Source: a virus
Taxonomy: Duplodnaviria; Caudoviricetes
Length of the DNA stretch: 64,000 bases
Direction: 5' to 3' (one strand)
IMG/VR virus record: IMGVR_UViG_3300037249_001405
Coordinates: 146,317 to 210,316 of that record
The position numbers and the translations under genes are program-made. The notes below the pieces were generated by a model that did no database searches, was not told the DNA's origin, and saw nothing but the letters and a program-made list of their open reading frames with translations. Below are positions 3,604-53,750 of the stretch, piece after piece (the first letter of the stretch is position 1; every line of letters begins with the position of its first letter).

Positions 3604-3692
3604 AAACCCTTATTTATGAAGAAAGTATAAATGTAATTATATTTTCTTCAATTTATTTTTCAAGATATTAATTAAGTAAAAAACTATTTATT
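3604..3692 (+). promoter_or_regulatory. Promoter-hairpin-U-box leader, copy 1
   Basis: AAACCCTTATTTATGAAG, hairpin 3618-3649, TTTATTTTTCAAGATATTAA. Confidence 0.75.
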
Positions 3693-4295
3693 ATGGCAGA
3701 AAAAATATTAAATGAGGAAGAACTTCCCTTCCCCAAATTCATGAAGAATGCTGTTTTCGGTGAACAGTTTCTCATGAAAGAACCTTACTACGGGGTAGCC
3801 ACATACCTTGAGTCTGTAGTAAGGCACGGGTATTACACATTTAGGTTTGCACCTGTCTATGTAGACCCTTTTAGAGAACGGATTAGTAGAGGATTTATAA
3901 CCGATTTCGTAACGAAATCAGAAAAAGAAATCCTTATTAATCCGGATCACGGACAAGAAATAATTGGAAAATTGAATGGTACGTTCAATTTTCAGAAAAT
4001 GTATGAGCTTCACGCCATTAGTGTCATTCTGAGCAACCATACGGATTGCCTAGACAGGACCGAAACTGACGTGGAAATACATGGCTTCTTTTCTCACATC
4101 CGACCCGAAATTCTCGGAGTTCTTGAGAAAAAGAGCAAACTGGCTAAAGAATTTATAGCCAGACTTTCTGAAAGAGAAAGAAATTGCTGCTTCAGCAGAC
4201 AAGACGCTGAATGGAAAGCCTTTAGCAGTGTAGACTGGAAGAAGGAACTCCAGAACTGTGGCTTAGATCTTTCAGAATATTTAACTATCTTTTAA
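3693..4295 (+). CDS. Hypothetical protein
   Basis: 200-aa ORF directly after the conserved leader. Confidence 0.75.
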   Translation: MAEKILNEEELPFPKFMKNAVFGEQFLMKEPYYGVATYLESVVRHGYYTFRFAPVYVDPFRERISRGFITDFVTKSEKEILINPDHGQEIIGKLNGTFNFQKMYELHAISVILSNHTDCLDRTETDVEIHGFFSHIRPEILGVLEKKSKLAKEFIARLSERERNCCFSRQDAEWKAFSSVDWKKELQNCGLDLSEYLTIF

Positions 4296-4307
4296 ACTGA
4301 CATAAGA

Positions 4308-4700
4308 ATGAAAAGTTTAAAAAAGTACAACCGAAAAAACCCTTGGCTTGAGGTAGGTCAGGGTGAATACACGGTATTCAGAAATTACGTAAAATTTGCG
4401 GAAAATGATGCCGATGATTTTTATGGATATTCAGTAAATCCATTTTACTGTTATATTCTGCCTTTAACAAAATTTAAGACTCCTTACTGGAATACAACAC
4501 ATTTTTGTATTTCTAGTGTAGATGATTGGGGTATTCATGCCACATTCAATTACGCTATGACCAGAGAGGAAGCTACGAAACTTTGTAGGGAGTTCATTAG
4601 AAGTTTCAAAAGAACCTCTAGAAGTTTCGGTGGTCTTACACAAGACCACTTTGAAGAATTCTTCAGAGAAAAAGGAGCTGATGAGATATCCCGAGGGTAG
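4308..4700 (+). CDS. Hypothetical protein, similar to the C-terminal domain of ORF 42696-43574
   Basis: FCISSVDDW..FEEFFREKGA vs FIISGGDDY..FDEFFYSKGA. Confidence 0.75.
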   Translation: MKSLKKYNRKNPWLEVGQGEYTVFRNYVKFAENDADDFYGYSVNPFYCYILPLTKFKTPYWNTTHFCISSVDDWGIHATFNYAMTREEATKLCREFIRSFKRTSRSFGGLTQDHFEEFFREKGADEISRG

Positions 4701-4720
4701 TCTCATCAGTCATTAAGATA

Positions 4721-4936
4721 AAACCTCACGTAATCGGTTGAAAGTCCTATATGGATACCCCGGTTCGAACCCGATGAAAACTTGCACGTAACCCCAGGCG
4801 TGTATTGTAAGTAGTTCCGAGTCCCTGAAAAAAGGAGGGCTGCGTCGTGTGAAAAGGACAGTCAGTGAGAAACTCTCACTGGTGCGGCGTGGCTAGAGAT
4901 AGTTGGTAAATTCGGGCTGATCTATGTGAGTTTTTT
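4721..4936 (+). ncRNA. Structured non-coding RNA (~215 nt), possibly raiA-motif-like
   Basis: Closing stem CTCACGTA-ATCGGTT / GGCTGAT-C-TATGTGAG then T-tract; internal hairpins including a T-loop arm CGG-TTCGAAC-CCG (4761-4773) and CAGTGAG/CTCACTG; GC-rich; no ORF. Confidence 0.65.
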
Positions 4937-4942
4937 AAGAAA

Positions 4943-5002
4943 AAAAAAATAAAGACATTTAATCTAAAATTAATTAGGTTATTTGTCTTTATTTTTTTTT
5001 TT
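4943..5002. terminator. Bidirectional terminator between convergent units
   Basis: AAATAAAGACA/TGTCTTTATTT inverted repeat with A- and T-tracts. Confidence 0.65.
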
Positions 5003-5022
5003 ATTTTTCTGGTCTATTTTTA

Positions 5023-6741
5023 TTAGAGAAAACTTCTGTCTTTAGACCAGAATATATTTATTGATGGGGTGGTGTTAATATCCACCTTATCACAATCCAA
5101 ATTATAAATCCAGAAGTCTCCGTTAACTAAGTTGATTAATGGAGAATTCTCAGATTTATCGAGAACCACCCGAGAAAGCGGAATAGAAAGTTGAGGTTCT
5201 CTATCTACGCTGATTTTTTCAGCGGGGTAGATATAGAAAGCTCCGGTAGGAATGGTAAGATCTTTTACATCATCCTTATGAAGGATGGTCGGTACAATCC
5301 GATCCATCAGAGCTTTTTTCTGCTCTTCGGCTTCTTTATGATTGTAAAAAGCCTCCTCACGGCAATAATCAGCGCTACCAATTCTTTGGGAGACTCTTGA
5401 GATTACATCACTTACAAGAAGGTTATAAACTACCTCGTAAGTGATATAAACTTTATCAGTAAACATTGTTTCCAAGGTTTTTCTGATATTTACGTCAGAA
5501 GATTTCTCAACGTAACTATCCTTCAAAGCAAGGATAGGTTTATCTACATGGAGCTTCTTACCAATAATAGACTTCATGTAGGTAGTGAGATAGTATGGCT
5601 TAAGGTAGCTGTAGCCACCGTCATCACACAACTCATTTAAATCACTGACGGTGATCTTATCTTGTCCGCCAAGTAATTTAATTAATCTTTTAGCTTTTTC
5701 AGGCATGTTGTAGTCTTCAAAAGCTTTCTCAATGATTTCATAGTATTTTTCCAGATAGTTTATTTCAGTACCGTCCGGCATTGTTGTTACCATAGAATCA
5801 TCAATAAACTTAGGTTTATCCTCGTATTCACCAGTGTCCTTGTAAACGGAAGAACTGATAAACCAGAAATAAACTGTAATATTCTTGAGCGTAGTGTTAT
5901 TTTTTACCACGAAATAGTGGTAATCAACATCGCTACTATTCTCATCTTCGTCTTCGTTAATGACACCTGCTCTTATAACAAGCATATTGCCATTAGCAAA
6001 TTTGATATTATACACCTCTCTCGAGAGGTTATCGTACTTTGTTATAAAAGAAGGTATTCCCATCATCTCAGGAGAACCATTCTCGTCTTTGCCAGTTGAA
6101 AGAACTAACTCATCAACGAATTTAACAAGTTCACCAGTTTTCATGTTAATACCTACTTTTATATCATAAGAATCATCCTCGTAACAATGATCATCATAGT
6201 CGCAGAGATAACATTCAGGTTCTTCTATACCGAAGAAATTGTAACGAAGCGTTTTGCTGCTTGTTTCAAAATTATCCTCCGTTACAGATTTTATGATATA
6301 GTAATCATCTGTCTTAAAGTTACAGATAAGCTTAGGACACCCATTTTCAGTGTTGCTAAGGTCTATAACTGTAAGACTGTTATCATCCCTGAGGATATAA
6401 AATTCGTTCCACCTGAATGGATCAAAGTTAATATCCTGTATAGTTCTGAAAAATTCGGTTACCGAATTCTCGCTTACTTTGTAATTTACATCACAAAGAT
6501 AATTTATCGATTCAAATAAGAGATGCTCTTTCAAATATCCCTCATTTGTTTGGGAATCGAATCCTTTTTCGATTCTTTTGATAATACATTTCAAAATTTT
6601 CTGAAACGTATTAACAAAGCTTTTATTGTTCCTCTTTGAAGGAAATTCAACGGAACAATAAAATTCAATGAGATCTGCTTTCTGCAAATCAACATTAAGA
6701 CCCTCCTCAACAGGCTTGGGTCTTTTCAAAAGAAATTCCAT
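5023..6741 (-). CDS. Hypothetical acidic protein
   Basis: 572-aa ORF preceded by the conserved leader. Confidence 0.8.
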   Translation of the reverse strand: MEFLLKRPKPVEEGLNVDLQKADLIEFYCSVEFPSKRNNKSFVNTFQKILKCIIKRIEKGFDSQTNEGYLKEHLLFESINYLCDVNYKVSENSVTEFFRTIQDINFDPFRWNEFYILRDDNSLTVIDLSNTENGCPKLICNFKTDDYYIIKSVTEDNFETSSKTLRYNFFGIEEPECYLCDYDDHCYEDDSYDIKVGINMKTGELVKFVDELVLSTGKDENGSPEMMGIPSFITKYDNLSREVYNIKFANGNMLVIRAGVINEDEDENSSDVDYHYFVVKNNTTLKNITVYFWFISSSVYKDTGEYEDKPKFIDDSMVTTMPDGTEINYLEKYYEIIEKAFEDYNMPEKAKRLIKLLGGQDKITVSDLNELCDDGGYSYLKPYYLTTYMKSIIGKKLHVDKPILALKDSYVEKSSDVNIRKTLETMFTDKVYITYEVVYNLLVSDVISRVSQRIGSADYCREEAFYNHKEAEEQKKALMDRIVPTILHKDDVKDLTIPTGAFYIYPAEKISVDREPQLSIPLSRVVLDKSENSPLINLVNGDFWIYNLDCDKVDINTTPSINIFWSKDRSFL

Positions 6742-6837
6742 AATAAAGTAGTTTTTATGTGTTAATAAATCGTGAAAAATAAAAAGAAGAAAATATAGAC
6801 TCTTTACATCTATATTTTCTTCATATATAAGAGTTTA
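6742..6837 (-). promoter_or_regulatory. Promoter-hairpin-U-box leader, copy 2
   Basis: AAACTCTTATATATGAAG, 14-bp stem 6786-6822, TTTTTATTTTTCACGATTTATTAA. Confidence 0.8.
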
Positions 6838-6851
6838 AAGGAATTAGAATA

Positions 6852-8392: not shown

Positions 8393-8836
8393 TTATATGG
8401 ATGAATTAATAAACTCAACAATTTCGTCATAAGAATTGTTTTGCCAAAACTTCCTGACGTTCTCAAACGAAATATTCATCTTATTACCATATTCATCGTA
8501 ATAAGTCATTTCAATTTTGACAACCGAAGGACATGGTTCATAATCAGTCTGATAAGTACGAATTATGAAACCAGCTTCATCAAGGATATCGATAATATCA
8601 TCAATATCTTCGTTTTCGTCCACATGACAGCCGAACTTAGGCTCGTCACCGTTATATGGGGTTGTAATATAAGCTAATACGTAAATTAGCTTATCATTAC
8701 CAAAGAATTCCTCAGGATTGATTTCGAATTCTTTTGTGATATAATCTGCATCACCCTGATCCCAAGTGTTTTTGACCAAGATGACATTTTTGCGTTCCTT
8801 GTTAGCTGAAGGAACCAGTAGAATGTGTTTATCCAT
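8393..8836 (-). CDS. Hypothetical protein (paralog of 10926-11441)
   Basis: Shared FF..DKLIYVLAYI and Y.DE.G.K..ISF motifs. Confidence 0.8.
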   Translation of the reverse strand: MDKHILLVPSANKERKNVILVKNTWDQGDADYITKEFEINPEEFFGNDKLIYVLAYITTPYNGDEPKFGCHVDENEDIDDIIDILDEAGFIIRTYQTDYEPCPSVVKIEMTYYDEYGNKMNISFENVRKFWQNNSYDEIVEFINSSI

Positions 8837-9031
8837 AATAAATATTTTATTTAAAAAATTAATATCTAGAAAAATAAAAAGAGAGTATAAAGCGGGATGC
8901 TTTATACTCTCGAGAAACAGAAAACAAAAATCAACCCAATAAATAAATTATGTCTTGAGTAATAATGGTTTAGAAAAATAAAAGATAATATAAACTTTTT
9001 ATCGTTTATATTATCTTCATGTATTAGGTTT
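8837..9031 (-). promoter_or_regulatory. Two tandem hairpin-U-box leaders (copies 3 and 4) with no gene between them
   Basis: AAAACCTAATACATGAAG plus stem 8982-9017 plus U-box; second stem 8881-8911 plus TTTTTATTTTTCTAGATATTAA. Confidence 0.75.
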
Positions 9032-9858
9032 TAATTGCTTTTCTTCCGTAAATTTTCTTGAATCTTTTTCCACACTTCAGGGCTACATCCGGTATTTAAA
9101 TTCGGAGGATCATAATCAATAAAAGAGTTATAAGTATCCTGTCCGAGTTTTGCCTCATCATGATAATGTTCAAGCATAGATGCTTTCTTACCATTAACTG
9201 TATATTTTTTCTTAGTAAGCTCTTCTGTCGGTATTCCTGATTTTAACCAAGCATTCATAACTTGACTCCTATTACCAGATTTTTCATATTGAAGTAAGTA
9301 ATTAGAATAATCTAAAATCTCATTAGGGTTTCTTAAATTAACAGCATCACCTTGTTTTAATTGATCTTCAAACTTCTTTCCATTAAAGTGCTTTCTAAAA
9401 TCAACTAAATCTTTTTCATTTCGAGCTTCTAGGTGATCATATGCATGACCGGCTTCATGAGCAGCATCTGATCCAGAAACTTTAGGTAAGAGTATACCCT
9501 TAACTTTTCGTTTTGCTCCATCTAGGTATGACAATGTGATAGGAGCTGATACTTTTGGTGATGCAACCGTAGTTATTCCATCCTTACGAAGAGACTTTAT
9601 AACTCCATGCCCAATATCTCTATCTTCTAGTATAGCATCTAAATCACCGTTCTCCTTACCAATTAAATAATCATTATATCTATTAACGGAGCTCAATGAT
9701 CTGTTGTCTTGCTTTCTCCTAAGATCTCTATAAAAATCAGCCTTCTCATTCTTTATAAGTTTTCTGAAAATAAGATTTAATTCCTGATTTTTTTTCAATT
9801 TCCTTACACGATCGGCATGAGAAGCTATTCCATATAAATTTGTTCTATATATAATCAT
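9031..9858 (-). CDS. Putative HExxH zinc-binding (metallopeptidase-like) protein
   Basis: AAHEAGHA motif; start chosen at MIIYR (ATG 9858) rather than GTG 9912. Confidence 0.6.
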   Translation of the reverse strand: MIIYRTNLYGIASHADRVRKLKKNQELNLIFRKLIKNEKADFYRDLRRKQDNRSLSSVNRYNDYLIGKENGDLDAILEDRDIGHGVIKSLRKDGITTVASPKVSAPITLSYLDGAKRKVKGILLPKVSGSDAAHEAGHAYDHLEARNEKDLVDFRKHFNGKKFEDQLKQGDAVNLRNPNEILDYSNYLLQYEKSGNRSQVMNAWLKSGIPTEELTKKKYTVNGKKASMLEHYHDEAKLGQDTYNSFIDYDPPNLNTGCSPEVWKKIQENLRKKSN

Positions 9859-10925: not shown

Positions 10926-11441
10926 CTAGTTTTTTGTAAATTTATTATATTTTTCCAGAAACTCCGGAAAATTTTCTTCAAATTCAATTTGATTAATGAA
11001 ATCTGTGATTTCATCACGGGTTTTATCTTTCCAAATAATTTCAATTATCTGGTCAAATGAAACCAACCACTTCTTGCCTTTTTCGTCAAAATAAACTATT
11101 TTTAATTCATTGACAGAATGGCAAATGGAGGAACAATTGCCTTTATAGCTGTATGTATGAAGGTTATGGTAACATAGAAAAGGAGTAATATATTTAATAT
11201 CCTCTTTTTCTATAATATCCCTATTGAGATATTTTTGGATATAAGCTAATACGTAAATTAGCTTATCATCCTCAAAGAATGTTCTTGCATCCTTCTTAAT
11301 TGGGTAAGAATTGTAACATTTGGCATAATTATCGAACATGTCATTCCAAATGATTGTAATTTCAACAAGGTTCTTTGGCTTGTCGTCTTGAGGGATTTCT
11401 TTGATAAGAAGACCCCTGTTATATTCATATTTTGTAATCAT
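10926..11441 (-). CDS. Hypothetical protein (paralog of 8393-8836)
   Basis: DKLIYVLAYI shared. Confidence 0.8.
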   Translation of the reverse strand: MITKYEYNRGLLIKEIPQDDKPKNLVEITIIWNDMFDNYAKCYNSYPIKKDARTFFEDDKLIYVLAYIQKYLNRDIIEKEDIKYITPFLCYHNLHTYSYKGNCSSICHSVNELKIVYFDEKGKKWLVSFDQIIEIIWKDKTRDEITDFINQIEFEENFPEFLEKYNKFTKN

Positions 11442-11533
11442 AAATATAATAAGTAGTTTTTATTAATTAATATCTAGAAAAATAAAAAGAAGAAGATATA
11501 AACTAATTTATATCTTCTTCTTCATTAAGAGTT
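11442..11533 (-). promoter_or_regulatory. Promoter-hairpin-U-box leader, copy 5
   Basis: Stem 11489-11520, TTTTTATTTTTCTAGATATTAA. Confidence 0.8.
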
Positions 11534-11543
11534 ACAGGGATTG

Positions 11544-12206
11544 TTACATGTACTCTGATTCAGTTCTACGATACCTTCTTAGACGGTAGTTTGATGCAAC
11601 GAGCTCTTCAAATGAAGATTCCTTGTACTCAATGTACACAGAATTAGGACCATGTTGCTCTTTCCATTCCAAGATTCTAAGTTGTTGTTCATCCCACTTC
11701 TTTTTTCTCTCCAACCATTCTGGAGTGAAATTACCGTCTTCTGGGAATTCAGGCATTTCAAGAAGAGGTTCACCATTAGGTGCATACTCAATCTTCTTTT
11801 CTGGCTCTTCATTTACAGGTTCCGGCTCTACTACCTTCTGTGAACGTTGCTTAGCTTCCTGCTTCTGAATTCTTTTCTCCTGTTCAATTCGTTTCTGATA
11901 AGAGGCCTCTGTTGAATCAACGGTTACCTCATTAGCAATCTGTGGTGCACTCTTATCTCCTCTAAGGAGGAGGTAGACTAGAAGACCACCGAGAGCCACT
12001 ATCAAGAAGATAAGAACCCAAAGTCCTTTCATCTTCTTTGTCTTCCTATGTCCTTCTCCTGTAGCTCCACCAATTGGACCATAGGTATCAGAATAGCTCC
12101 TTTCTTTCGAGACAGATTTGTCACTTACTCTGTGGCTACCTGTGCCGTTGTAATCAATCACCGCCTTCTTATTGGCGGCATTTGCTCTTGATCTTGCTCC
12201 TGCCAT
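11544..12206 (-). CDS. Single-pass membrane protein
   Basis: Hydrophobic segment GLWVLIFLIVALGGLLVYLLL after a basic stretch. Confidence 0.8.
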   Translation of the reverse strand: MAGARSRANAANKKAVIDYNGTGSHRVSDKSVSKERSYSDTYGPIGGATGEGHRKTKKMKGLWVLIFLIVALGGLLVYLLLRGDKSAPQIANEVTVDSTEASYQKRIEQEKRIQKQEAKQRSQKVVEPEPVNEEPEKKIEYAPNGEPLLEMPEFPEDGNFTPEWLERKKKWDEQQLRILEWKEQHGPNSVYIEYKESSFEELVASNYRLRRYRRTESEYM

Positions 12207-12250: not shown

Positions 12251-13087
12251 TTATTCAGCAACGACAACACCAGAATCACTTCCAATGAAATCATCACCAA
12301 TTGGTTTATTTTCTATTGTAAAACCAGCTCTTATATCCAAATCTTTCAAATCAGACTCAGACATACCAAGGAGATTCATAATGAATGAATTTAGAGTTTT
12401 CTTATCTAACTCAATATGATCACGATTATGAATACCACTTTCAAACTTAATAATAAGGGTTATTTCATATTTCCCCTCTTTTCGAGATCCATTATTACCA
12501 CGAAGCAATACACCAATCTCATCTTTTGAATCTAAGATTAGACCGTTGTTATCACTGTTAACGTTAATATCGTACCTCAAAATACTTGACTGTAAAATTT
12601 TTTCTCTTACACAAGTATTCAATAGCGTATTAAAGTATTTCGGGATAATATACTTTAACATAGCCTCCACTTCTCTTTCATCATCAACCCATTTATCTGT
12701 TTCAATAAAATTTGGAGTTGACTCAGAATAGTTGTAGCGTAAAGCTTTAACCTTAATAGCTTCTGTCATTATTTTAATGACATCTGGGTCATTCATATAT
12801 GTATTAGTGAAATAAATTGGATTACTCAACAAATACATAAGAAAATCTATATTCGAAGAATCAGCTAACTCGACATAAGAGGTAATTTGAGGATATATTC
12901 TTCTATAATCTTCCTCATTTTCTCCTTTTGTTGTAGATTTAAATGAGTAAGATTCAACAAATATTGATTGATAATTATCGGAGTTGACTTTACTCAAAAC
13001 AGATTTCATAATAGACTCAGAAACATTTTCTAATTCTATTTCCACGGATCTTGTAATCCGTAATGTAGGAATTGTTCCTTCTTCCAT
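12251..13087 (-). CDS. Hypothetical protein (family with 15085-15912 and the N-terminus of 17109-19742)
   Basis: Shared IKVKALRY..PNF and IPKYFN-type blocks. Confidence 0.75.
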   Translation of the reverse strand: MEEGTIPTLRITRSVEIELENVSESIMKSVLSKVNSDNYQSIFVESYSFKSTTKGENEEDYRRIYPQITSYVELADSSNIDFLMYLLSNPIYFTNTYMNDPDVIKIMTEAIKVKALRYNYSESTPNFIETDKWVDDEREVEAMLKYIIPKYFNTLLNTCVREKILQSSILRYDINVNSDNNGLILDSKDEIGVLLRGNNGSRKEGKYEITLIIKFESGIHNRDHIELDKKTLNSFIMNLLGMSESDLKDLDIRAGFTIENKPIGDDFIGSDSGVVVAE

Positions 13088-13183
13088 TTTTTTTCATATT
13101 TAGTTAATATCGTGAAAAATAAAAAGAGAAAGTGAGTGTATGAATATAGAAACGTACACTCACTTTCTCAGTGATTAGATTTT
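13088..13183 (-). promoter_or_regulatory. Promoter-hairpin-U-box leader, copy 6
   Basis: AAAATCTAATCACTGAG, 15-bp stem 13126-13169, TTTTTATTTTTCACGATATTAA. Confidence 0.8.
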
Positions 13184-13187
13184 GAGA

Positions 13188-15059
13188 CTATTTCAAATTC
13201 TCAGCAAATTCTCTAATTACGCTGGCATCCTCATCAGAGAAGTCAGCATAATCTACTATTTTTTCTTTTATCAATTTTAGAATAATAGTAAGAGATTCAT
13301 CGTCAAACTGAGGCTCATCATAATCTTCCTCATCCTCTGGATCTACATAAGAGAGAACCCATTCAATATGGTCTGTGTCTCTTGTTTCAAACCATACATC
13401 TCTTGCGAGACATTTAGTTTTGGTAAGTTTAATTACCTCACGATACATAAACTTACCATTTCTCAAGTCCTCCGGAGTAACGTTTGGAAGATTTGAAATT
13501 AAATTAAGATCAATCAATACTCCATTAGAAGGCATTTGATAATCAACTTCAATCTTAGAAAGACTAGAATTTAACCAACCTTTCTTATTCTTCAATGAAT
13601 CAAGAACCTTTTCATCACGGAAAATAATCCTCTCTAATTCACTGTAATCAAGATTCATATATTTACCGTACAAAGAATACAAAGAGTCTTCTTTGTAATA
13701 GATAATACGAGAATCAGATTTAGCTGAAAAATCAAAATCTACACCCTTGAATGCTTCTGGGATAGGAGTTAAACTACCACTCCTAACCACTTGCTGAAGA
13801 AGCTGTTGATTTCCTACTACCCCTTCGCAATCTGGTTCAAATAAATCATTTAAGCTCAAATGATTATCGCTTAGAGCGAGTGGAATGCTCTCGAATATAG
13901 AGATATGACCTTCCCAAAGCTCAAGTACAAGATTAATTTCATCAAGACAAGCCTTATATGAATTATACATGTTTAACGCTTTGGATCCAAATTTCATATC
14001 ACCAAGATTATCAATCATAGTATTAACCCAGGTATATTCACCCATCAAGATAGACTTAGCCATAGAAATCTTCTCACCTAAGTCATATTCTTCTATTGAT
14101 CCTGTATTTTGGTCAATACTTTTATAAAGATTCACTTTAATAAATCCATGATCATAGGTAATATAACCTTTCGATTGCGGATTTATTATGATGAAACCAG
14201 AAGCAGGTGTAGTCTTGTCAATCATATAATTATAGCGATTAACTCCACCTTCAATAACATAAGTTGGGAAATAAAGCCATTTACTCCAACCTCTATCATT
14301 GAGAGCTTCTCTATATACCCAGAGAGATTCTAATGCTTTGGTATTAGCTGTAAGACTTTCTCTCCAATCGAGACGATCAATGTCAGGAAATCTCATTACT
14401 GGACAATGATTATCCTCACCAGGATGATTTGTGAACATAAACGAGTCAATTCGACCCCTGTATGGATCAAACATACCAATACCAGGGAGGAATTTACCTG
14501 ATGTTCTCATAGCGATGACCCACTTCTTCAATAGATCAAATATTCGATCATCAGTTGGTGTTTCATCAAATTTGATTTTATCAAAATCAGCTTTAAATGT
14601 TGGATTGTCTCCTTCATAATCAAGCCAACTTTCTTCATCGAAAAATCCCGATTCTACAAAATCATAATTCAACGAAGTTCCACCTATTTCAGATTCACCA
14701 GGACCAACCGCATGAATCTGATTAGGAACATACACGTAGTCCCTACCATTTTTAAACCTAAGAATGATAGGCTGTTTGCTTTCTTTATCCTTAACACAAA
14801 TATTCTTTGAGATCCGCGTTACTGGATATTGAAGGTAGTGATCAACTACCTTAGCCGCATCATATTGGTCAGGAATATTATTCTCTTTACAGAGAATATC
14901 TTTCATCCAACCTTCACCCTTCAACTCTGTTTGAATTGAGGAGTAAAGCTCTTTCTTCTCATTATCTGAAGTAATCATGAAAGAGAGAGCTGTAATCGAG
15001 GGTATTAAATACCCAACATATGCTCTGGACTCTTCTACGTCCACGTGTTTTGTTGCCAT
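13188..15059 (-). CDS. Hypothetical protein
   Basis: 623-aa ORF. Confidence 0.8.
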   Translation of the reverse strand: MATKHVDVEESRAYVGYLIPSITALSFMITSDNEKKELYSSIQTELKGEGWMKDILCKENNIPDQYDAAKVVDHYLQYPVTRISKNICVKDKESKQPIILRFKNGRDYVYVPNQIHAVGPGESEIGGTSLNYDFVESGFFDEESWLDYEGDNPTFKADFDKIKFDETPTDDRIFDLLKKWVIAMRTSGKFLPGIGMFDPYRGRIDSFMFTNHPGEDNHCPVMRFPDIDRLDWRESLTANTKALESLWVYREALNDRGWSKWLYFPTYVIEGGVNRYNYMIDKTTPASGFIIINPQSKGYITYDHGFIKVNLYKSIDQNTGSIEEYDLGEKISMAKSILMGEYTWVNTMIDNLGDMKFGSKALNMYNSYKACLDEINLVLELWEGHISIFESIPLALSDNHLSLNDLFEPDCEGVVGNQQLLQQVVRSGSLTPIPEAFKGVDFDFSAKSDSRIIYYKEDSLYSLYGKYMNLDYSELERIIFRDEKVLDSLKNKKGWLNSSLSKIEVDYQMPSNGVLIDLNLISNLPNVTPEDLRNGKFMYREVIKLTKTKCLARDVWFETRDTDHIEWVLSYVDPEDEEDYDEPQFDDESLTIILKLIKEKIVDYADFSDEDASVIREFAENLK

Positions 15060-15084
15060 AATTATTAATTGTTGTGTTTTTTTT

Positions 15085-15912
15085 TTATTTATTATTTCTA
15101 TAAATTAAAGCTGAAAATCCGGAATAATCTACCATTACAGCAGGATTGTAATCAGTACCTGCTAATTCTTTATCTTGAATTCCAAGATACTCCTCAAATA
15201 TAATTTTATACAAATCATTAATATCGAGGCTGATTTTATCAAGAACTTCAAGTTCAACAAAAAGAGAAGATCGGTTGTTGTTTCCTCTTTTCTTTTCATT
15301 GGACGAGAACATTGCTCTATTCTCACCTAGTATTCCAGAATGGATAACGTGATTCAAATTCTTGAATACTACACTTGAAGTTTGATTATCTTCAACTCTA
15401 GCATAATTTTTTGACATAGAATTGAACCACATAGGAAGTTTCTCGTTTAAGAACTTATGAATAACCTCATCTTTCTCGTATTTTGTATCCAAAACAGGGA
15501 AATTAGGCTCCAAAAGTCTGAACCAGTAAGTCAAAGATTCTATTTTCATAGCTGCTTCAACTTTTTCATCCCACCTACGCCAGTTATTAACTCCTACTCC
15601 AAAATAATATGGAGTATAAAGGAAATGCTGAATAAAATCAGTGCGATCTTTGTAATCAATTGAACCACAAGCATTCAAGAACTCATCCACGTTCAAGTCT
15701 GCGCTCAACCTAACCATCCTTGATTGTCTATTTGAATCAATAGACTCGAATAGGTATGATTCTGTAGTAGACAGTTTAGTTAGTTTACTACAACGAAACA
15801 GATGCTGAATTCCTGCTTCAGCCTGTTCTCGATCGAGTTTGTTTACAAAAACTCGAATCAAATCGCCTTTGTTTACGTTTACGGCGATATTTGTCATTTT
15901 TTCTGATGACAT
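15085..15912 (-). CDS. Hypothetical protein (paralog of 12251-13087)
   Basis: HFLYTPYYF/YLLSNPIYF, MKIESLTY..PNF, LPMWFN. Confidence 0.75.
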   Translation of the reverse strand: MSSEKMTNIAVNVNKGDLIRVFVNKLDREQAEAGIQHLFRCSKLTKLSTTESYLFESIDSNRQSRMVRLSADLNVDEFLNACGSIDYKDRTDFIQHFLYTPYYFGVGVNNWRRWDEKVEAAMKIESLTYWFRLLEPNFPVLDTKYEKDEVIHKFLNEKLPMWFNSMSKNYARVEDNQTSSVVFKNLNHVIHSGILGENRAMFSSNEKKRGNNNRSSLFVELEVLDKISLDINDLYKIIFEEYLGIQDKELAGTDYNPAVMVDYSGFSALIYRNNK

Positions 15913-15987
15913 AATTGATAAGTGTTTAGTTAATAATGATAATTTATTTTTTTTGTTCTTTTATTAGATTTTGAAGGGACAAAAAAA

Positions 15988-17108: not shown

Positions 17109-19742
17109 CTAATTATTCATTGATTTTATAGCTTCATCGGCTACTTTGTTAATGGCCTCGACTGCAGCAACAGCTTTCTCATCAATTGCATAATCATCTA
17201 CCTGAATATTATTATTCCTCTTATAAAAATCCTCCATACAAGCTGGAGGAACAAACATAAAACTATTCATTAAAACATAATCTTTAATTGAATTTTTATT
17301 GTTTGTATCCTTGTCATTTCTATCACATATTTGATACTGAAGTGCTGCTTTTGTAAAATCAAACCCACTTGCATAAAAATCAGGAACAACGGGCTTAACT
17401 CCGGCCTCTTCAAAGAGGTGAGTTGAACATTTCCATTGTTCAAAAACTGATGGAGTAATTTCAAATTCAGTATAATTATCTATGTCCAGGATTCTGTAAA
17501 TATTATTAATTACTTCACCTAGGTTAATGTAAAGATATGCTTCATTATTACTCAACTTACTAACCTGTTCCTCTCGATAAATATAATATTTAGTAACACC
17601 ATTCTTGATATCATCGAGTGTTACCTTATATTTACCATATGTTTTAATAGCATCATAAACCCTTTGCCAATTATTATAATAAAGCGTATTAATCAAATCA
17701 GTGTCAAAGTTTAACCTTGATTTATGAACCTTATTATAAAATTCTGTTACGCCCCAGCTCGGTGAAGGAACATAAGCATATTTAATGAGATAATTAGCTA
17801 TAACACATTCACATGTTCCTCTAGGATCATCAAGAGCTCGTTTAACTAAGTTATGAAGTTCTTCTGCCCATGTAACTGAGTTAACCTGATCTATATCGTT
17901 CAAAGTGAATTTAACCCCGAATAATCGATACCTTCTATACTCATTTATGTATTCAGCGGACTCTGCATCAATATCGAAAAGATCTTTTAATAGTTTATTA
18001 TATACCTCTACAGTATTACAAACATAAACCTCTTCCGTGCTTAAACGTCCTCCTTTTACATAATTATAAACATTAAAGTAATATTTATCGGATACTATAT
18101 CTCGGACTTTCATCCAATTTTCTTTATAGTTTTCCGTAAAATACTCCTTTATCTTGTCTAAGAATTTATCACAGAAATTCCAGATACAATCATCTCCATA
18201 CTTTTCATAAAAATCCTTCATAGATTTTCCGATAATTTTGGATCTTTTTGTATTAGTATCGGATAGAGTTACTTGATCATACGCCCCTTTAATAATAGTA
18301 TCAATATTACCTGAGAGTGTCCAGTTTGATTCTTCCTTCTGATCACACATAGCTGATTTTAAATAATCATCTATATTAAGAGGTGGTGCAAACATGAGGG
18401 TATGTATTAAGTCTGTAGTCTTAATATCACTACCATCCATTGGAATAGGCGTAGGATCATTACCAGCCTCTAACCACTCTCGCTCTATCTTACCCCAAAT
18501 TTCAAAATCTGTAGGAGTAATGGTTCTCTTTGAGAAATGCTCATCAAAATAGTCAAAATAATAGCTATAACCTTTTGATGGCTTTTCCAATGCACAATTA
18601 GCAAAAGCTAAATCAGATGGTGTAATGACATAACTATGAGTCTTCATCTTCATAGCTGTTTCCACAACTTCCCACTTTTTCTTAAAAAGATCAGAAGCTT
18701 TGATCATTCTTAATTTAGTCTTGGTAAATTCAAGATCATCTTTGGAAGGTGTTTTTTCTTTCTCTCTCTTTTCATACTCTTCCATACTCATTCCAGTCTT
18801 TCCAAGATAGTTCAAGAAATCATCAAGCTCATTTCTGTGTGGATTTAAAGGTTCTGGTTCTGGAGTATCTTCTACCTTAGTAATTGTTTTAGTGAGAGAA
18901 TCATTAGAATAAATCCTGGATTTAATATCCATTGGATTTTCAAACTCCTTAATATAATTAACCCTAGCTGTATTAACGTCATTAAACCACGTAATAGTTT
19001 TGCTATAGTTAGCTATATCATCATCTGTTAATTTAAATCCGATATTAGTAATAGCCGTAAATATCTTCTCTAAATAAACTGGTTTAAATTTTTCTAAATC
19101 ATCAGTAACATCAATATCAAACTCAAATACAGCATTAACGTCCTTATCATCCTCCTTAATAAAATACCAATCACATGTAATATCAGAATCCAAAGAATAG
19201 AAATGGAGCTTACGTGTATTTGTATATTTTAATACTGTAGAATATTCATTCATAAAATGAATATAGCTTGAAATTTTTCTAGTAGACGACCACAGACCAG
19301 AGGGCATACTTAGCTTTCTAGTATGATCATCAAACCAGTTAGGTACTGTTTCTGGATTAAATATACAAGTAACCGGTAAGAATTGCTGAGATTGATCCCT
19401 TAAGTACTCGTATTCAATCTGCTTAATTTCTATACCACCATCTTTTTGCAGAGTTGATGCACTATCCTCATGAAGCGAAAAAATAGATTTATAGTCTATT
19501 TTATTATTCACAAAGAACCTAATCACATCCTTAACCTTTTGTTCGTCTGTGCTACCCTCTTTAAGTTTGTCAGAAAATGTAGTAGTAACATTCAGAGTAA
19601 CTAAACTACCATTCTCCTTGTAATCAAAAGTTTCCTTTAATGTAATAGGAAACTCATTCACTTTCGTAAAGCTAGTAAAAAATACATTAACTAATGTATC
19701 AAGCTCCACCTTAGGAATAGTTAATCTTGCTTTTCTAATCAT
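17109..19742 (-). CDS. Large hypothetical protein
   Basis: 877-aa ORF; N-terminal region resembles the 12251/15085 family (IEIKQIEY, VPNWFD). Confidence 0.8.
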   Translation of the reverse strand: MIRKARLTIPKVELDTLVNVFFTSFTKVNEFPITLKETFDYKENGSLVTLNVTTTFSDKLKEGSTDEQKVKDVIRFFVNNKIDYKSIFSLHEDSASTLQKDGGIEIKQIEYEYLRDQSQQFLPVTCIFNPETVPNWFDDHTRKLSMPSGLWSSTRKISSYIHFMNEYSTVLKYTNTRKLHFYSLDSDITCDWYFIKEDDKDVNAVFEFDIDVTDDLEKFKPVYLEKIFTAITNIGFKLTDDDIANYSKTITWFNDVNTARVNYIKEFENPMDIKSRIYSNDSLTKTITKVEDTPEPEPLNPHRNELDDFLNYLGKTGMSMEEYEKREKEKTPSKDDLEFTKTKLRMIKASDLFKKKWEVVETAMKMKTHSYVITPSDLAFANCALEKPSKGYSYYFDYFDEHFSKRTITPTDFEIWGKIEREWLEAGNDPTPIPMDGSDIKTTDLIHTLMFAPPLNIDDYLKSAMCDQKEESNWTLSGNIDTIIKGAYDQVTLSDTNTKRSKIIGKSMKDFYEKYGDDCIWNFCDKFLDKIKEYFTENYKENWMKVRDIVSDKYYFNVYNYVKGGRLSTEEVYVCNTVEVYNKLLKDLFDIDAESAEYINEYRRYRLFGVKFTLNDIDQVNSVTWAEELHNLVKRALDDPRGTCECVIANYLIKYAYVPSPSWGVTEFYNKVHKSRLNFDTDLINTLYYNNWQRVYDAIKTYGKYKVTLDDIKNGVTKYYIYREEQVSKLSNNEAYLYINLGEVINNIYRILDIDNYTEFEITPSVFEQWKCSTHLFEEAGVKPVVPDFYASGFDFTKAALQYQICDRNDKDTNNKNSIKDYVLMNSFMFVPPACMEDFYKRNNNIQVDDYAIDEKAVAAVEAINKVADEAIKSMNN

Positions 19743-38007: not shown

Positions 38008-38107
38008 GATAATTTTATATTTATATTAAACATAATGAGTTTTTATTAATACGTATATTAGAATGGTAGTATATTGTTAGTGGAGTTTTCTTTATTTCAA
38101 TCACTTT

Positions 38108-38203
38108 AAACCCTTAATAATGAGGAAGATATAGACAGTTAAGTTTATATCTTTCTTTTTTATTTTTCACGATTATATTAACATTTAAAAAAACTACAAT
38201 ATT
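38108..38203 (+). promoter_or_regulatory. Promoter-hairpin-U-box leader, copy 11
   Basis: AAACCCTTAATAATGAG, hairpin, TTTTTTATTTTTCACGATTATATTAAC. Confidence 0.8.
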
Positions 38204-38668
38204 ATGGAAGTTATATTCCTGGTAGGCTTGCCTGGATCAGGTAAGTCCACAGTTGCAAGTATTGACCCCACTTACAAGGTGGTGTCAATGGACCGTATTC
38301 GTCAGGATATGGGCATCATCGGCTCTGATGGCAAAAAAGGCATCGGAAACAATGAGCAAGAAGCCGTTGTAAAGGCTAAAGAAAATGAAACCATTGCCGA
38401 TTGGGCTAAAGCCGGTTATGATTTCATAATTGATGATACTAATTTAAAATCCGGTAAAAGGATGATGCAAATTGATATCATTAAAAAAGCTAACCAAAAT
38501 TACAAGATTAAGTATATTTTGGTTAAGACTCCGGTGGAGATTTGTATATCTCGCCGTCCTGAAATTCCCCAGGATATTATGCATTCATTTAATGATGCAA
38601 GTAACTGGGTAATTTACAAAGAGGAGCTTCAACAGATTGATGCTCTTGAGGTAATAAGCAATAACTAA
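38204..38668 (+). CDS. P-loop polynucleotide kinase-like protein (AAA_33)
   Basis: VGLPGSGKST, SMDRIR, IIDDTN, CISR. Confidence 0.85.
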   Translation: MEVIFLVGLPGSGKSTVASIDPTYKVVSMDRIRQDMGIIGSDGKKGIGNNEQEAVVKAKENETIADWAKAGYDFIIDDTNLKSGKRMMQIDIIKKANQNYKIKYILVKTPVEICISRRPEIPQDIMHSFNDASNWVIYKEELQQIDALEVISNN

Positions 38669-41412: not shown

Positions 41413-42306
41413 TTATTTAGTTATAAATCTAATATTATTTGAATTTAAGCCTAAAACATTAGGCCTAATTAATTCAATTTCATCCTCTTCGTATACAGAA
41501 AGGTCGTAGATTTTTCCATAACAACGAGGATTTTCTGGATGATTTCCATACCACAGACCTCTGAATCCGTATAGTCCTGGGCATGAAGCATTCATACCTT
41601 TCTTAAGGTGTTTTTCTTTCACCTTAAGAACTACAACTCTATCTTTCCTGTTTTCTTCTTTATTATAGAGTTGGAGAATCATTCCAGGGCGTATATCTTC
41701 TTTCTTAATACGTCTTTGCTCTTTCACCCAATCTATCCTTGCCTTTATCTTAGGCAATTCTCTAATGCAATCGGGTTCTACAAGTTCCTGATTCTCCATT
41801 AATACTTTATACAGAAATTCACAAGCTTCCAACCAGTCTTCTGTTATGTCAACTGGAATAGTTGTGATATTACTGTATCCATCAGCTAAATGAAATATAC
41901 CCCTTCTTGGTTTTGTTCCATTTATGCTGAGTTGATCTGCTCTTTTCAGTGTATAATCAAGAGTATGATCATTGACACGATTTTCGATATCTTTGATTAT
42001 ACTTACTTGCTCATCATACCATTCATTGTAGTTTGGTAATAATGTTATTTTTTTACCTTTAGCAAGATCTTTGAGAATTTTCTCATGCTCAAGATCTTCT
42101 AGTCTTTCTTTTTCTACCCTCTCAAGAGCTTCCTCTATTGTGGGTACTCTGTTGGTTTTGTAATTTGGAGCCTCAATAAGTTCTCCAAATTCCCAACTAA
42201 AACCACCGCCTATTGTGAGTAGACACTGGTCTAACACGTCGATAACATTCTGTTGTATCGCCGGATAAAGGAGGATAGACCTCCTTATTGTATTTTTTAC
42301 ATTCAT
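41413..42306 (-). CDS. Hypothetical protein
   Basis: 297-aa ORF after the conserved leader. Confidence 0.75.
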   Translation of the reverse strand: MNVKNTIRRSILLYPAIQQNVIDVLDQCLLTIGGGFSWEFGELIEAPNYKTNRVPTIEEALERVEKERLEDLEHEKILKDLAKGKKITLLPNYNEWYDEQVSIIKDIENRVNDHTLDYTLKRADQLSINGTKPRRGIFHLADGYSNITTIPVDITEDWLEACEFLYKVLMENQELVEPDCIRELPKIKARIDWVKEQRRIKKEDIRPGMILQLYNKEENRKDRVVVLKVKEKHLKKGMNASCPGLYGFRGLWYGNHPENPRCYGKIYDLSVYEEDEIELIRPNVLGLNSNNIRFITK

Positions 42307-42397
42307 ATTTGATATAGTTTTTTGTTAATAATCATGAAAAATAAAGAAGGGAATATAAACTTTAATCGTTCATATTCCCTTCTTATATAAAGGTTTT
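42307..42397 (-). promoter_or_regulatory. Promoter-hairpin-U-box leader, copy 12
   Basis: AAAACCTTTATATAAG, stem 42344-42384, TTTATTTTTCATGATTATTAAC. Confidence 0.8.
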
Positions 42398-42472
42398 AGC
42401 TGGTTAGATATGCATAATCTAGAGAACCCTTAAATCTTTAGTATTGAATATAAATTATAATTAACAAAAAAA

Positions 42473-50511: not shown

Positions 50512-50533
50512 AAAAAAATACAAAAATTAAATT

Positions 50534-51410: not shown

Positions 51411-52429
51411 TGAAATTACTGGCAATCGATTTAGGGTATTCTTCTGTAAAGGTAGCTTATCATAATGAAACTGGAGCACTACAATTTGAAAAGTATATTA
51501 GTGCCTTAGCTAAAATTCAGGACCCTATGGAAGCTGATGATGACGTATTGTTCAGATTAGGAGCAGATTTTTATATTCTTGGAACCCCAGCATTGAAGGT
51601 TCCCCGTTCTTGCCTCCTTCGTCTGGATGATTTTGAATCAATGAAAGTTGCATATCCTGTTTGGATATCTTATCTACTAACTAAATATAGTAGGGAAGGT
51701 TTGACATTCGATAAAGTAGTAATTGGATTGTCAATGGCTTTTAAAGACAGAACAGATGAATTGTTGACTTACTTATGTGAAACTTTAGGTAAGCAAAAAG
51801 AAGATGGATTCTTCATATGTCTACCTCAGGGTCTTTCTTGTAAGTTGGCGTATTCAGAATGTGGTTTGGATATTAGAGAATCTTCAAAGCACAATGATTA
51901 CAAGATGAAGAACTACCTCATTCTCGATGGTGGATTCTTAACTTGTGATATTTGTAACGTAGCTAATGGAACAGCATCAGCTGGTGCTGCAGTGGGCATC
52001 CCGAATACCGGTCTCATTGTAGTATCTCTTAACGTTATTGATTATCTCCGTAAAGAGTATAATATGGAGGTGTCAGTCAAGGAAGCTCAGACTATCGTAG
52101 ATAATGCCGGTCGTTTTACTAGAAGAGGTAAAGAGTACAATATCGGTTCTAAGTTAGATGAGTTTATAAAGAAATATCTTCTCGATGTACTAAATCTTCT
52201 TGAAGCGAAATTCGGAGAAGCTATTGATGCTGTTGATGGTATACTTGTTTGTGGTGGATTAAGCTATTTCTTTAAGAAATATCTCGCAGATCCTAAATTC
52301 ACAAAACTAGTAGAGGATCAACACTTCCCAACTTCATTCTTACACTTCCCTTCAACAGACTCAGAATACTTTAACGCTTTTTCTTATCTTAGAATCGCAC
52401 AAAACATTCTAGGAAATAATAAGAAATGA
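51410..52429 (+). CDS. ParM/StbA-like actin-family ATPase
   Basis: Phosphate-1 AIDLGYSSVK, PQG, phosphate-2 ILDGGFLT, adenosine motif LVCGG, terminal FNA. Confidence 0.85.
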   Translation: MKLLAIDLGYSSVKVAYHNETGALQFEKYISALAKIQDPMEADDDVLFRLGADFYILGTPALKVPRSCLLRLDDFESMKVAYPVWISYLLTKYSREGLTFDKVVIGLSMAFKDRTDELLTYLCETLGKQKEDGFFICLPQGLSCKLAYSECGLDIRESSKHNDYKMKNYLILDGGFLTCDICNVANGTASAGAAVGIPNTGLIVVSLNVIDYLRKEYNMEVSVKEAQTIVDNAGRFTRRGKEYNIGSKLDEFIKKYLLDVLNLLEAKFGEAIDAVDGILVCGGLSYFFKKYLADPKFTKLVEDQHFPTSFLHFPSTDSEYFNAFSYLRIAQNILGNNKK

Positions 52430-53025
52430 GCGAACTAGTTATAAAAGGACAAGCATGGATTTGTAACGATCAATTATTGCAGGATCAGATTACATTTACT
52501 GATTCTGAATCATCGAATAATGGTGCCTCCAAAACAGTTGTCTTAATTGAGAATATTTGGGATGACTTGTTTGCGGGTAATGGAGAGTATAAGTGGAATG
52601 GTAAAAATTATTTCTATTGGGAGTATGAAATGACTGATACAATGTCAGATACAGGTGATGTTGTATTAGTTAAGCATGAATGCCCAGCTCTTACTTATGA
52701 AAAAGCAAAAGAAAAACTAGTCCCTGGTGAAACACCAGAGGCTAGAGATGAGAAAGAGAAAGAATTAGTTTCTAAGTATAATGGATTACCTTTCCCTGAC
52801 CCAAGAAAAGCATCATTAGGTCATGGTGATTATGTAGATTATTATATCACAAAGTTTTGGGTAGCTTTGGAAAATTCTTATAAGAATGGAAATATTCAAA
52901 GAACAGAAGTAACATTCCCAGGTTCTTCTCACGTTGGTCTCGACGGAGAAATTGTTACCGTTGACGAAGTTACAGTTACTAACCACGATTTCAGTGATAT
53001 TGCTAATCTATTGAGTTTATATTAA
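52426..53025 (+). CDS. Hypothetical protein coupled to the actin-like gene
   Basis: ATGA overlap with the upstream stop. Confidence 0.75.
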   Translation: MSELVIKGQAWICNDQLLQDQITFTDSESSNNGASKTVVLIENIWDDLFAGNGEYKWNGKNYFYWEYEMTDTMSDTGDVVLVKHECPALTYEKAKEKLVPGETPEARDEKEKELVSKYNGLPFPDPRKASLGHGDYVDYYITKFWVALENSYKNGNIQRTEVTFPGSSHVGLDGEIVTVDEVTVTNHDFSDIANLLSLY

Positions 53026-53033
53026 AAAAAAAT

Positions 53034-53086
53034 AATATCAGATATTAGGTTGATTTATAATTACATACCTAATATCTGATATTTTT
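53034..53086. terminator. Bidirectional terminator
   Basis: 17-bp AATATCAGATATTAGGT/ACCTAATATCTGATATT. Confidence 0.8.
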
Positions 53087-53111
53087 ACTCCTCTAAAAAG
53101 AGAGTGTAAAT

Positions 53112-53660
53112 TTAGTTATCCTTAGTCTCAAGAACTTGAATAACATCTTTATGAAGAATAACAATGGAATCACAACTCCATGATTCCAAGTACTCTTCCT
53201 GCTTCTGGTGAGGTGCTTTGCCTTCCATATAAAGATTATATTGCTCAGCATCCTTCACTCTGCACTCTAAGACTGCATTATATGTCACCTCAACGGCGTC
53301 ATAATCTTTTGCAATCTTTTCCCAATCGAAGTGATTGGACTCGAGATCTGTGACGTCTTTGTAGGAAGTCATAAATCTTTTATAATCCTCGTAAGAATCA
53401 ATTTTCCTGATCCTTGCCGAAGGTTTTAATACAAACCTGGTCCATTTTTGCATATAACAAGGAACTCCCTCGCTTTTACAAAAATTGAGCCATCCGTATT
53501 GTGCGTCTATGGGTGATGCCCATAAACCACAGTAACACGGTTTGTTCCGAATTGCGTCGGATTTACAGTTCTTAACCTCATTAAAATCTTCTGGGTTAAA
53601 AGCCAAACCATAAGAGATATACTGTCTCTTTACGGTAATCTTAAAATTATTATTAGCCAT
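53112..53660 (-). CDS. Hypothetical phage protein (GLWASP motif)
   Basis: 182-aa ORF after the conserved leader. Confidence 0.75.
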   Translation of the reverse strand: MANNNFKITVKRQYISYGLAFNPEDFNEVKNCKSDAIRNKPCYCGLWASPIDAQYGWLNFCKSEGVPCYMQKWTRFVLKPSARIRKIDSYEDYKRFMTSYKDVTDLESNHFDWEKIAKDYDAVEVTYNAVLECRVKDAEQYNLYMEGKAPHQKQEEYLESWSCDSIVILHKDVIQVLETKDN

Positions 53661-53750
53661 AATAAATAAAATTTAAATAAAAGTTAAAATCTTGAAAAAT
53701 AAAAGAGGATATAAACTTAACTGTCTATATCTTCTCATTAATAAGGGTTT
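53661..53750 (-). promoter_or_regulatory. Promoter-hairpin-U-box leader, copy 13
   Basis: AAACCCTTATTAATGAG, hairpin nearly identical to copy 11, TTTTATTTTTCAAGAT. Confidence 0.8.

Follow-up and report, generated by a model that had tools for sequence, protein, structure and literature searches.

The window analysed here comprises the last 64 kb (64,000 nt, positions 146317-210316) of a 210-kb linear virus record in IMG/VR (IMGVR_UViG_3300037249_001405; Caudoviricetes), and it carries 13 copies of a module of about 90 bases, which we refer to as the cassette. The parts follow each other in the same order in each copy: a promoter-like motif of about 22 nt, M1 (CCTT-N-AAA-NN-CTTA-NNNN-TGA), a hairpin, a U-rich tract (the U-box, TTTTTATTTTTC), and a leader that ends with ATG. 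About 13 more copies lie elsewhere in the record, which has a G+C content of about 33% and a completeness of 56% as estimated by CheckV, and which encodes a NAD-dependent ligase, RtcB, NrdD and a chaperonin. The large proteins encoded there mostly had no match among the PHROG families, which recognise almost none of them, and a protein of 877 aa had no relative among the phages in GenBank. The gene context given below rests on crude calls of open reading frames (ORFs).

The family was delineated with a covariance model, R1, built from 14 copies. A search of the 210 kb with R1 returned 24 matches at E < 0.015, together with two or three weaker ones, including 23758-23864 and 20555-20645. All 13 copies listed by the initial annotation, in which the minus-strand coordinates denote the base adjoining the downstream ATG, were recovered in this way, but the element is not confined to the window. 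The 12-nt U-box occurs at 18 sites of the window with at most one mismatch, compared with 4.1 +/- 2.0 in shuffled sequences. The copies are dispersed and oriented with transcription, and in all but one of them an ORF of at least 40 codons begins 7-37 nt past the modelled part; the sole larger gap, of about 117-118 nt, belongs to the upstream half of a tandem (8954-9043). With regard to the upstream context of 27 copies, 15 abut the stop of a co-directional ORF with no other terminator, nine stand behind an independent terminator, and three are located in divergent regions. The view that the cassette defines a class of genes holds: among the 22 genes headed by a cassette that were tested, 20 had no Pfam family above the curated cut-off. 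A search of IMG/VR with the exact pattern of the U-box plus the box that follows it gave 22 single matches; none had the anatomy of the cassette, and they were treated as chance.

The best R1 match (85.8 bits) is the plus-strand cassette 38097-38187, located in a divergent intergenic region before the polynucleotide-kinase-like ORF 38204-38668 (AAA_33 and phrog_505 matches), with no co-directional gene or terminator upstream. The minus-strand cassette 42319-42407 (81.3 bits), also divergent and intergenic, precedes ORF 41413-42306 and has the strongest hairpin, with a fold of -23.5 kcal/mol. Between the stop of RtcB (6852) and ORF 5023-6741 lies the cassette 6756-6847 (-, 82.7 bits). The stop of an upstream ORF is abutted by 11458-11545 (-, 71.7 bits; after ORF 11544-12206 and before ORF 10926-11441), by 37550-37635 (-, 69 bits; after ORF 37624-38007 and before ORF 36649-37533), and by 13095-13194 (-, 44.7 bits), which stands between an ORF of 623 aa and ORF 12251-13087 and has the most divergent stem, of 15 bp. 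The same position is taken by the weaker plus-strand cassette 20555-20645 (30 bits, E 0.08; after ORF 19841-20575 and before ORF 20673-20993), in which the U-box is a variant one, M1 scores 20.8 and the fold is -19.3 kcal/mol. An independent terminator lies upstream of 28087-28169 (-, 71.1 bits; before ORF 27156-28070) and of 53678-53761 (-, 69.4 bits; before ORF 53112-53660). The plus-strand cassette 3593-3680 (56.1 bits, fold -13.5 kcal/mol), which heads ORF 3693-4295, likewise has a GC-rich independent terminator (3545-3595) directly upstream. In the same place, at 3500-3595 (+), a weak M1-like motif right after the ligase stop is followed about 25 nt on by a GC-rich hairpin and a long T-run; it may represent a promoter-to-terminator mini unit of about 70 nt.

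The remaining copies depart from the common form. The tandem on the minus strand consists of the cassette 8954-9043 (46.2 bits), with a degenerate leader 118 nt upstream of the ATG at 8836, and of 8850-8911, a hairpin with U-box and leader that lacks M1, precedes ORF 8393-8836, matches only model positions 26-90 of R1 (37.3 bits) and was also picked up by the terminator scan. The atypical cassette 23758-23864 (-, 32.7 bits; before ORF 22725-23741) has a spacer of 9 nt between M1 and the hairpin and an interrupted U-tract. Thus, the statement that the motif runs straight into the hairpin in 12 copies needs a small correction: M1 is present in 12 of 13 (it is absent from 8850-8911), and the stem begins at its last G in 11 of these 12, the spacer of 23758-23864 being the exception.

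M1 is not limited to the cassettes. A position weight matrix (PWM) derived from the cassette copies gave 75 sites scoring at least 10, versus 29 in the reversed sequence, and of the intergenic sites with high scores, 26 belong to cassettes and about 22 are stand-alone motifs. The latter precede ORF starts by 18-55 nt or stand ahead of genes for tRNAs and long non-coding RNAs, and nearly all of them come directly behind an ordinary terminator made of a hairpin and a T-run. An example is the hairpin-less M1 at 15945-15965 (-; PWM match at genome position 162274 on the minus strand, score 13.6), which stands behind an ordinary terminator and 46 nt before the ATG at 15912; this order of terminator and then M1 is the standard one in the genome. 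The motif is one contiguous block in which conservation ends at TGA, with no partner at -33 or -35, and sigma-70-type sites were not enriched (39 found, 36.1 expected). Its 3' half, TA-NN-WW-TG, resembles the Bacteroidota -7 box, TAnnTTTG (PMC9330008; dRNA-seq of Segatella copri), departing from it at the T-rich positions. Since the three cassettes in divergent regions need a promoter and M1 is the sole conserved motif there, we infer that M1 is a promoter of the phage, early or middle, which either the host polymerase with a phage factor or a phage polymerase may use. In some copies only, a mini-ORF could be read from an ATG within M1; its frame is not kept, and this candidate was rejected.

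The hairpin and the U-box have the form of an intrinsic terminator, a stem followed by a U-rich tract on the transcribed strand, placed between the promoter motif and the gene, as the initial annotation had described. The stems are 12-18 bp long (median 14 bp), the loops are variable (4-10 nt), and the folds range from -10 to -23.5 kcal/mol. The U-box is the kind of U-tract with which ordinary transcription units of this genome end; their tails often consist, like the U-box, of a T-run, an A and another T-run, and the tail of an ordinary terminator at a convergent gene end (59470-59518, +) is almost the same. A comparison of the cassette hairpins with 66 other intergenic terminator-like hairpins revealed no difference in fold (medians of -16.1 and -13.4 kcal/mol, respectively), stem length, G-C pairs (3 and 3) or tail T content (8 of the first 10 tail bases in both), and a simple terminator scan picks up several cassettes. 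Furthermore, the RNA genes driven by M1 end at hairpins of the same kind, which indicates that the polymerase using M1 does terminate there; we infer that the hairpin and U-tract of the cassette terminate transcription too. Two candidate explanations were discarded at this point. A polymerase that ignores these terminators is at odds with the ends of the M1-driven RNA genes, and a constitutively leaky attenuator is at odds with cassette hairpins no weaker than ordinary terminators. The cassette shares with an intrinsic terminator the stem-loop and the following 8-10 U-rich bases, indistinguishable from those of the 66 others, and it is the sole terminator-like structure at 15 co-directional junctions. 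Unlike such a terminator, it follows a promoter motif and is always separated from a start codon by 25-45 nt, and in 12 copies there is no upstream transcript that needs stopping.

The leader lacks a Shine-Dalgarno sequence and consists of GAT(A/T)TTAAC, an A-rich run and ATG. The element GAT(A/T)TTAAC is also found behind the terminal G of several hairpin-less M1 sites, and TTAAC peaks 20-27 nt before start codons genome-wide. All in all, the cassette amounts to an ordinary M1 promoter and its leader with a terminator module placed between the two, so that the usual order of terminator and promoter is inverted. The near-invariant box had been regarded as a possible specific recognition site. 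This idea is weakened by our analysis, because the U-half of the box resembles an ordinary terminator tail and its second half is common to hairpin-less leaders; what speaks for it is that the U-box is identical in a relative with 47% protein identity. The possibility that the box is a second promoter was rejected, since it has no similarity to M1 or to the host consensus boxes. Across the whole record (233 crude ORFs) the start-codon context shows no Shine-Dalgarno sequence, A at position -3 in 74% of cases, and an A-rich stretch at -11 to -16. We take this to be the Bacteroidota pattern, and it points to a host from this phylum.

The initial annotation had claimed that the stem sequences vary while pairing is kept, and this claim was borne out. 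In a model-based alignment, standard pairs occupy 94.4% of the cells, versus 83.7% in shuffles; 11 of the 13 pairs changed on both sides, and none of 500 shuffles reached the observed values, whereas slid partner columns, used as a control, were paired in 41-63%. These covariation figures are upper bounds, because the alignment had been made to fit the structure and because the copies are paralogues, the stems being paralogous variants on one theme rather than free sequence. A comparison between phages points in the same direction: in the cassette adjacent to RtcB in a close relative, the stem differs from the window copy at four positions, and all four differences are compensated. The first paired base is the G of the TGA of M1, within 2 nt, in 24 of 26 copies. 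The sense fold is more stable than the antisense one in 20 of 25 copies (p = 0.005), and the stems contain 18 G-U pairs versus three A-C mismatches. The stability of the sense strand and the excess of G-U pairs imply that the structure matters in the sense-strand RNA, and a role of the hairpin in duplex DNA or in the template strand is unlikely. No Rfam family reached its gathering score anywhere in the window.

Relatives of the phage were found through the 623-aa ORF beside the cassette 13095-13194, which has homologues at nine loci in rumen metagenomes of the Joint Genome Institute (JGI); two of them (L039 and L040) show 96% protein identity, and six (L042-L047) show 47%. Locus searches with single proteins, the 572-aa ORF 5023-6741 and the ligase, revealed no relatives, and neither did an alignment query in IMG/VR. 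R1 finds cassettes in all of the longer relative loci. In the distant lineage (L042-L045) a cassette lies directly after the orthologous stop, that is, at the junction occupied by 13095-13194 in the window. Its M1 is recognisable, the TTAAC leader is present and the U-box is identical, whereas the stem is unrelated but still pairs. The presence of the cassette at the same junction indicates that this architecture is old, with the stem constrained to pair and the U-box to keep its sequence. The phage, an uncultured jumbo phage of the rumen, probably has its host among the rumen Bacteroidota.

The comparison of gene content is based on one 22-kb locus of the close relative (L040) and on short contigs of the distant one. 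L040 aligns with window positions 3380-28856 in 13 blocks of about 92% nucleotide identity with gene-sized gaps between them; 11 ORFs are present only in the window and three only in L040, and nearly all of them are ORFans. Several of the junctions are located within the cassettes or their parts. The genes at 23865-25453 are absent from L040, where the crossover lies inside M1 and joins a hairpin-less M1 to the M1 of cassette 23758-23864. In another case L040 has about 3 kb extra, with two ORFs flanked by two cassettes, and the window has a single hybrid cassette (6756-6847), again with the crossover in M1. The gene behind cassette 3593-3680 has been replaced in L040; the two sequences cease to match at the U-box and match again for a short stretch in the A-rich leader. 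L040 also lacks genes 10926-11441 and 8393-8836, each of which separates, in the window, a cassette from the gene headed by that cassette in the relative, the junctions being in the A-rich leader motif and at two start codons, respectively; the tandem 8850-9043 heads RtcB in L040. Gene 15085-15912 has been inserted likewise behind a hairpin-less M1 leader. Other events, located at 9031-9858, 26362-27111 and 5006-6111, make no use of such motifs. The window-only ORF 26362-27111 encodes a RibD_C (dihydrofolate-reductase-like) protein.

In total, two events against L040 fall in M1, one at the U-box and three in leaders or start codons. Of the 22 breakpoints, 12 are found no more than 50 nt from a start codon (11% expected, p = 7e-7), and four fall within cassettes (4.6% expected, p = 0.016). 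Exact matches between pairs of cassettes reach 27 nt, the median being 12 nt. Polymorphism of the same kind was found in the distant lineage, including the junction upstream of the 623-aa gene. The insertion, deletion and replacement junctions in M1, U-box and leader relative to a phage of 92% identity support the recombinogenic cassette proposed by the initial annotation; recombination appears to have used the motifs, judging from the position of the breakpoints.

Two further observations concern these regions. Just upstream of the 623-aa gene (window 15059-15912; L042 and L045 versus L043:1617-1632) an extra gene is present in some members of both lineages, and this junction looks like a recurrent insertion spot. 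The 572-aa cassette-headed ORF 5023-6741 (-) has a paralogue of 37% identity in L040 (where the loci 17836-19620 and 19715-20365 were recorded), and L040 also has a separate ORF of 216 aa that is 64% identical to its N-terminal part. The 572-aa gene family therefore appears to have been duplicated and split and to be diverging at cassette boundaries.

The closest functional parallel is provided by the promoter-early-stem-loop elements (PeSLs) of the T4-like phages RB49/phi1, PST and nt-1 (Arbiol et al., 2010, PMC2839356; Comeau et al., 2014, PMC4122927). A genome contains about 50 of these cassettes, which combine an early promoter with a terminator stem-loop and the start of translation and mostly precede ORFans of hyperplastic regions; they mediate insertions, deletions and replacements, their stem-loops have been shown to terminate, and their promoters to be strong (PMC2839356; PMC4122927). 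Exchange between neighbouring PeSLs also gives rise to excised mini-circles. The cassettes described here are likewise numerous short conserved intergenic units in which a promoter (in our case a promoter motif) is joined to a stem-loop of the terminator type and to the site where translation of the next gene starts. They are concentrated directly before ORFans in a hyperplastic region (14 ORF-level differences from the relative with 92% identity), and indel and replacement junctions between close relatives fall within them; one subclass of PeSLs also has its stem-loop between the -10 box and the start site. At the same time, the promoters of PeSLs match the early sigma-70 consensus of the host (-35 and -10 boxes with an AT-rich region upstream), whereas M1 is not sigma-70-like but a contiguous phage-specific 22-nt motif with no -35/-33 partner. 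The order of promoter and hairpin is fixed, with the stem anchored at the last promoter base, whereas the stem-loops of PeSLs occupy five positions. The cassettes also have a conserved U-tail and a Bacteroidota-type leader with no Shine-Dalgarno sequence, and they occur in an unrelated phage lineage with a host from another phylum. The cassette does not belong to the PeSLs by sequence but appears to work like one.

Based on these results, we consider it fairly probable that the element is a PeSL-like portable composite of promoter, terminator and leader, which would serve as the terminator of the upstream gene, as the promoter and leader of the next one, and as a recombination joint for accessory ORFans. 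The hairpin and the U-tract would act as an intrinsic terminator that stops transcription arriving from the upstream gene, and M1 would start a new transcript for the following one or two genes. The conserved pieces would provide short-homology joints for the insertion, deletion and exchange of accessory genes between related phages. The fate of the cassette's own transcripts would depend on where M1 initiates. If M1 is of the sigma type, with a -10/-7 element, transcription would start 4-7 nt inside the 5' arm, and the cassette's own RNAs, which would keep about eight A-U pairs apart from the U-tract, would read through; RNAs from upstream would fold the whole hairpin and stop. A start inside the stem would explain the fixed anchor of the stem at M1, and within the core reading we give this case, with escape of the cassette's own transcripts, somewhat less than even weight. 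If transcription begins at the terminal G or A, the RNAs would carry a terminator of full strength and expression would need read-through. Within the same core reading, such action of the terminator on the cassette's own transcripts has about an even chance; it is favoured by the intact stems in divergent regions, by the covariation of the basal pairs, and by the full hairpin that lies in the path of transcripts in two copies.

Several points weigh against the portable composite cassette. The activities of the promoter and of the terminator are both deduced from sequence. The promoter precedes the hairpin with a fixed anchor, whereas the stem-loops of PeSLs lie upstream of or within a promoter of the sigma-70 type. 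In the nine copies with an independent upstream terminator and in the three divergent ones, a terminator for upstream transcripts would be redundant, yet the stems are intact. Transcripts from M1 must cross the full hairpin in the tandem (8954-9043/8850-8911) and in 23758-23864, so the hairpin is no absolute stop there or read-through is assisted. Gene-sized indels were also found at hairpin-less promoters, at leaders and in other places, which suggests that shuffling is a property of all conserved regulatory motifs in a hyperplastic region and not of the hairpin cassette alone. Finally, variability is not clearly higher for the first gene behind a cassette (4 of 8) than for the neighbouring genes (about 7 of 24).

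The strongest competitor of the composite cassette, which we regard as possible but distinctly less probable, is a regulon controlled by attenuation and antitermination, which requires a start at the first stem base or upstream of it. RNAs started at M1 would carry the whole hairpin and stop in the U-box after about 40-60 nt, and a phage factor or a modified polymerase would read through, so that the genes behind the cassettes would form a delayed class. This explanation shares the terminator with the composite cassette and differs from it only in which transcripts stop. M1 is contiguous and its conservation ends exactly at TGA, which is typical of promoters of phage-specific polymerases that start at the end of the motif and suggests a start at the terminal G or A. 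On the other hand, the resemblance of the 3' half of M1 to TAnnTTTG would place the start 4-7 nt inside the stem, and attenuation does not require the fixed stem anchor at M1. That the polymerase using M1 terminates at hairpins of this kind is indicated by the ends of the M1-driven RNA genes, and the cassette hairpins are as strong as those terminators. Covariation extends over the full stems down to the basal pairs, the stems are intact in divergent regions, and in two copies the full hairpin is unavoidable for transcripts from M1.

Starts directly followed by terminators in the 5' untranslated region (UTR) have been mapped in the jumbo phage 201phi2-1 (PMC11512511), and 5'-UTR small RNAs that arise by premature termination are known from 201phi2-1 and phiKZ (PMC11512511). 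In the lambda pR'-tR'/Q system with its 6S RNA, in the gp39 system of phage P23-45, and in these jumbo phages, the genes are likewise preceded by a promoter and, within tens of nucleotides of it, an intrinsic terminator; gp39 is an antiterminator of the factor type, and such factors act at plain intrinsic terminators (PMC3351154). These systems have one or few sites, whereas the present genome has at least 26 paralogous copies, and neither a gene for an antiterminator nor its recognition site could be identified in this 56%-complete record. None of the Pfam families RNA_pol, RNA_pol_Rpb2_6, Sigma70_r2, NusG and Phage_antitermQ matched in the 210-kb record (about 56% complete), so that no antiterminator (Q or NusG-like), sigma factor or polymerase gene was found there, although antiterminators are a diverse set of proteins; the negative for T7-type polymerases carries no weight, since the control for that family matched in no genome. 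In addition, the downstream half of the box is not specific to the cassettes, and a dedicated recognition site is not evident. A bolder form of the idea, which we put forward tentatively and rate slightly lower still, is a genome-wide switch in which at least 26 strong promoters, and perhaps about 45 in the complete genome, would fire into terminators of full strength, and the accessory genes would need a phage factor that confers terminator resistance. If so, infection would produce a flood of hairpin RNAs of 40-60 nt, possibly active, for example, as decoys, and the accessory ORFans would possibly have a role in counter-defence.

We consider it improbable that the hairpin is primarily a 5'-terminal stabiliser that protects the RNA against nucleases dependent on the 5' end, with the U-rich box and TTAAC loading ribosomes without a Shine-Dalgarno sequence, and with termination being incidental. 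Such protection needs a stem that begins at the last conserved promoter base, and this is the case in 24 of 26 copies and in the distant lineage. The selection of the structure on the sense strand, the constant link of the cassette to a start codon, and the A/U-rich initiation region, which lacks Shine-Dalgarno sequences genome-wide, are in agreement with this explanation as well. The leader of ompA and that of gene 10 of phage T7 begin with stabilising stem-loops, and in the T7 leader a comparable hairpin at +1 is followed by an enhancer. In these leaders, as in the cassette, the hairpin stands at or next to the presumed first transcribed base and precedes an A/U-rich leader for translation, but their hairpins have no U-tract of the terminator type. 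It is this tract, abutting the stem and matching the tails of terminators, that the explanation cannot account for: it is unneeded for protection and would abort transcripts. The earlier proposal of a 5' stabiliser or translational operator therefore leaves a main part of the cassette unexplained. Moreover, the hairpin-less M1 leaders carry the same TTAAC and A-rich elements, which thus work without a hairpin, and in the tandem, the second hairpin does not occupy a 5' end.

Finally, a DNA-level element, either a hairpin or cruciform promoter of the N4 type, an oriented protein site like the mycobacteriophage 'stoperators', or a selfish repeat like a miniature inverted-repeat transposable element (MITE) without a regulatory role, is very improbable: although the U-box is identical across lineages of 47% identity, more than a plain U-tract needs, and the copies are dispersed and follow the direction of transcription, the G-U pairs and the sense-strand stability point to RNA, the stems (12-18 bp) and the variable loops (4-10 nt) do not resemble the promoter hairpins of N4 (stems of 5-7 bp, loops of 3 nt, conserved bases, formed on the template strand), there are no terminal inverted repeats or target duplications, and each copy stands in the same register before a start codon.

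One more gene of the window deserves mention. The NrdD encoded at 54642-56837 (+) is 65% identical to the NrdD of Thomasclavelia (Firmicutes) phages, far above any other phage in the collection. Given the Bacteroidota-like translation signals of the genome, it may represent a horizontal acquisition.

Overall, the portable composite cassette would carry the idea behind the PeSLs, namely that small cassettes both shield accessory genes and provide the joints at which these are swapped, over to a jumbo phage that is unrelated and uncultured. This suggests that the use of regulatory cassettes as recombination joints is a general solution for the turnover of accessory genes in phages. The sharp question that follows is whether the promoter starts inside or before its own terminator. 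The cassette would also be a compact candidate part, combining promoter, terminator and leader, for hosts that do not use Shine-Dalgarno pairing. Together with M1, it may serve as a marker, readable from sequence alone, of the transcription units and of an accessory, probably early, gene set in this group of phages.

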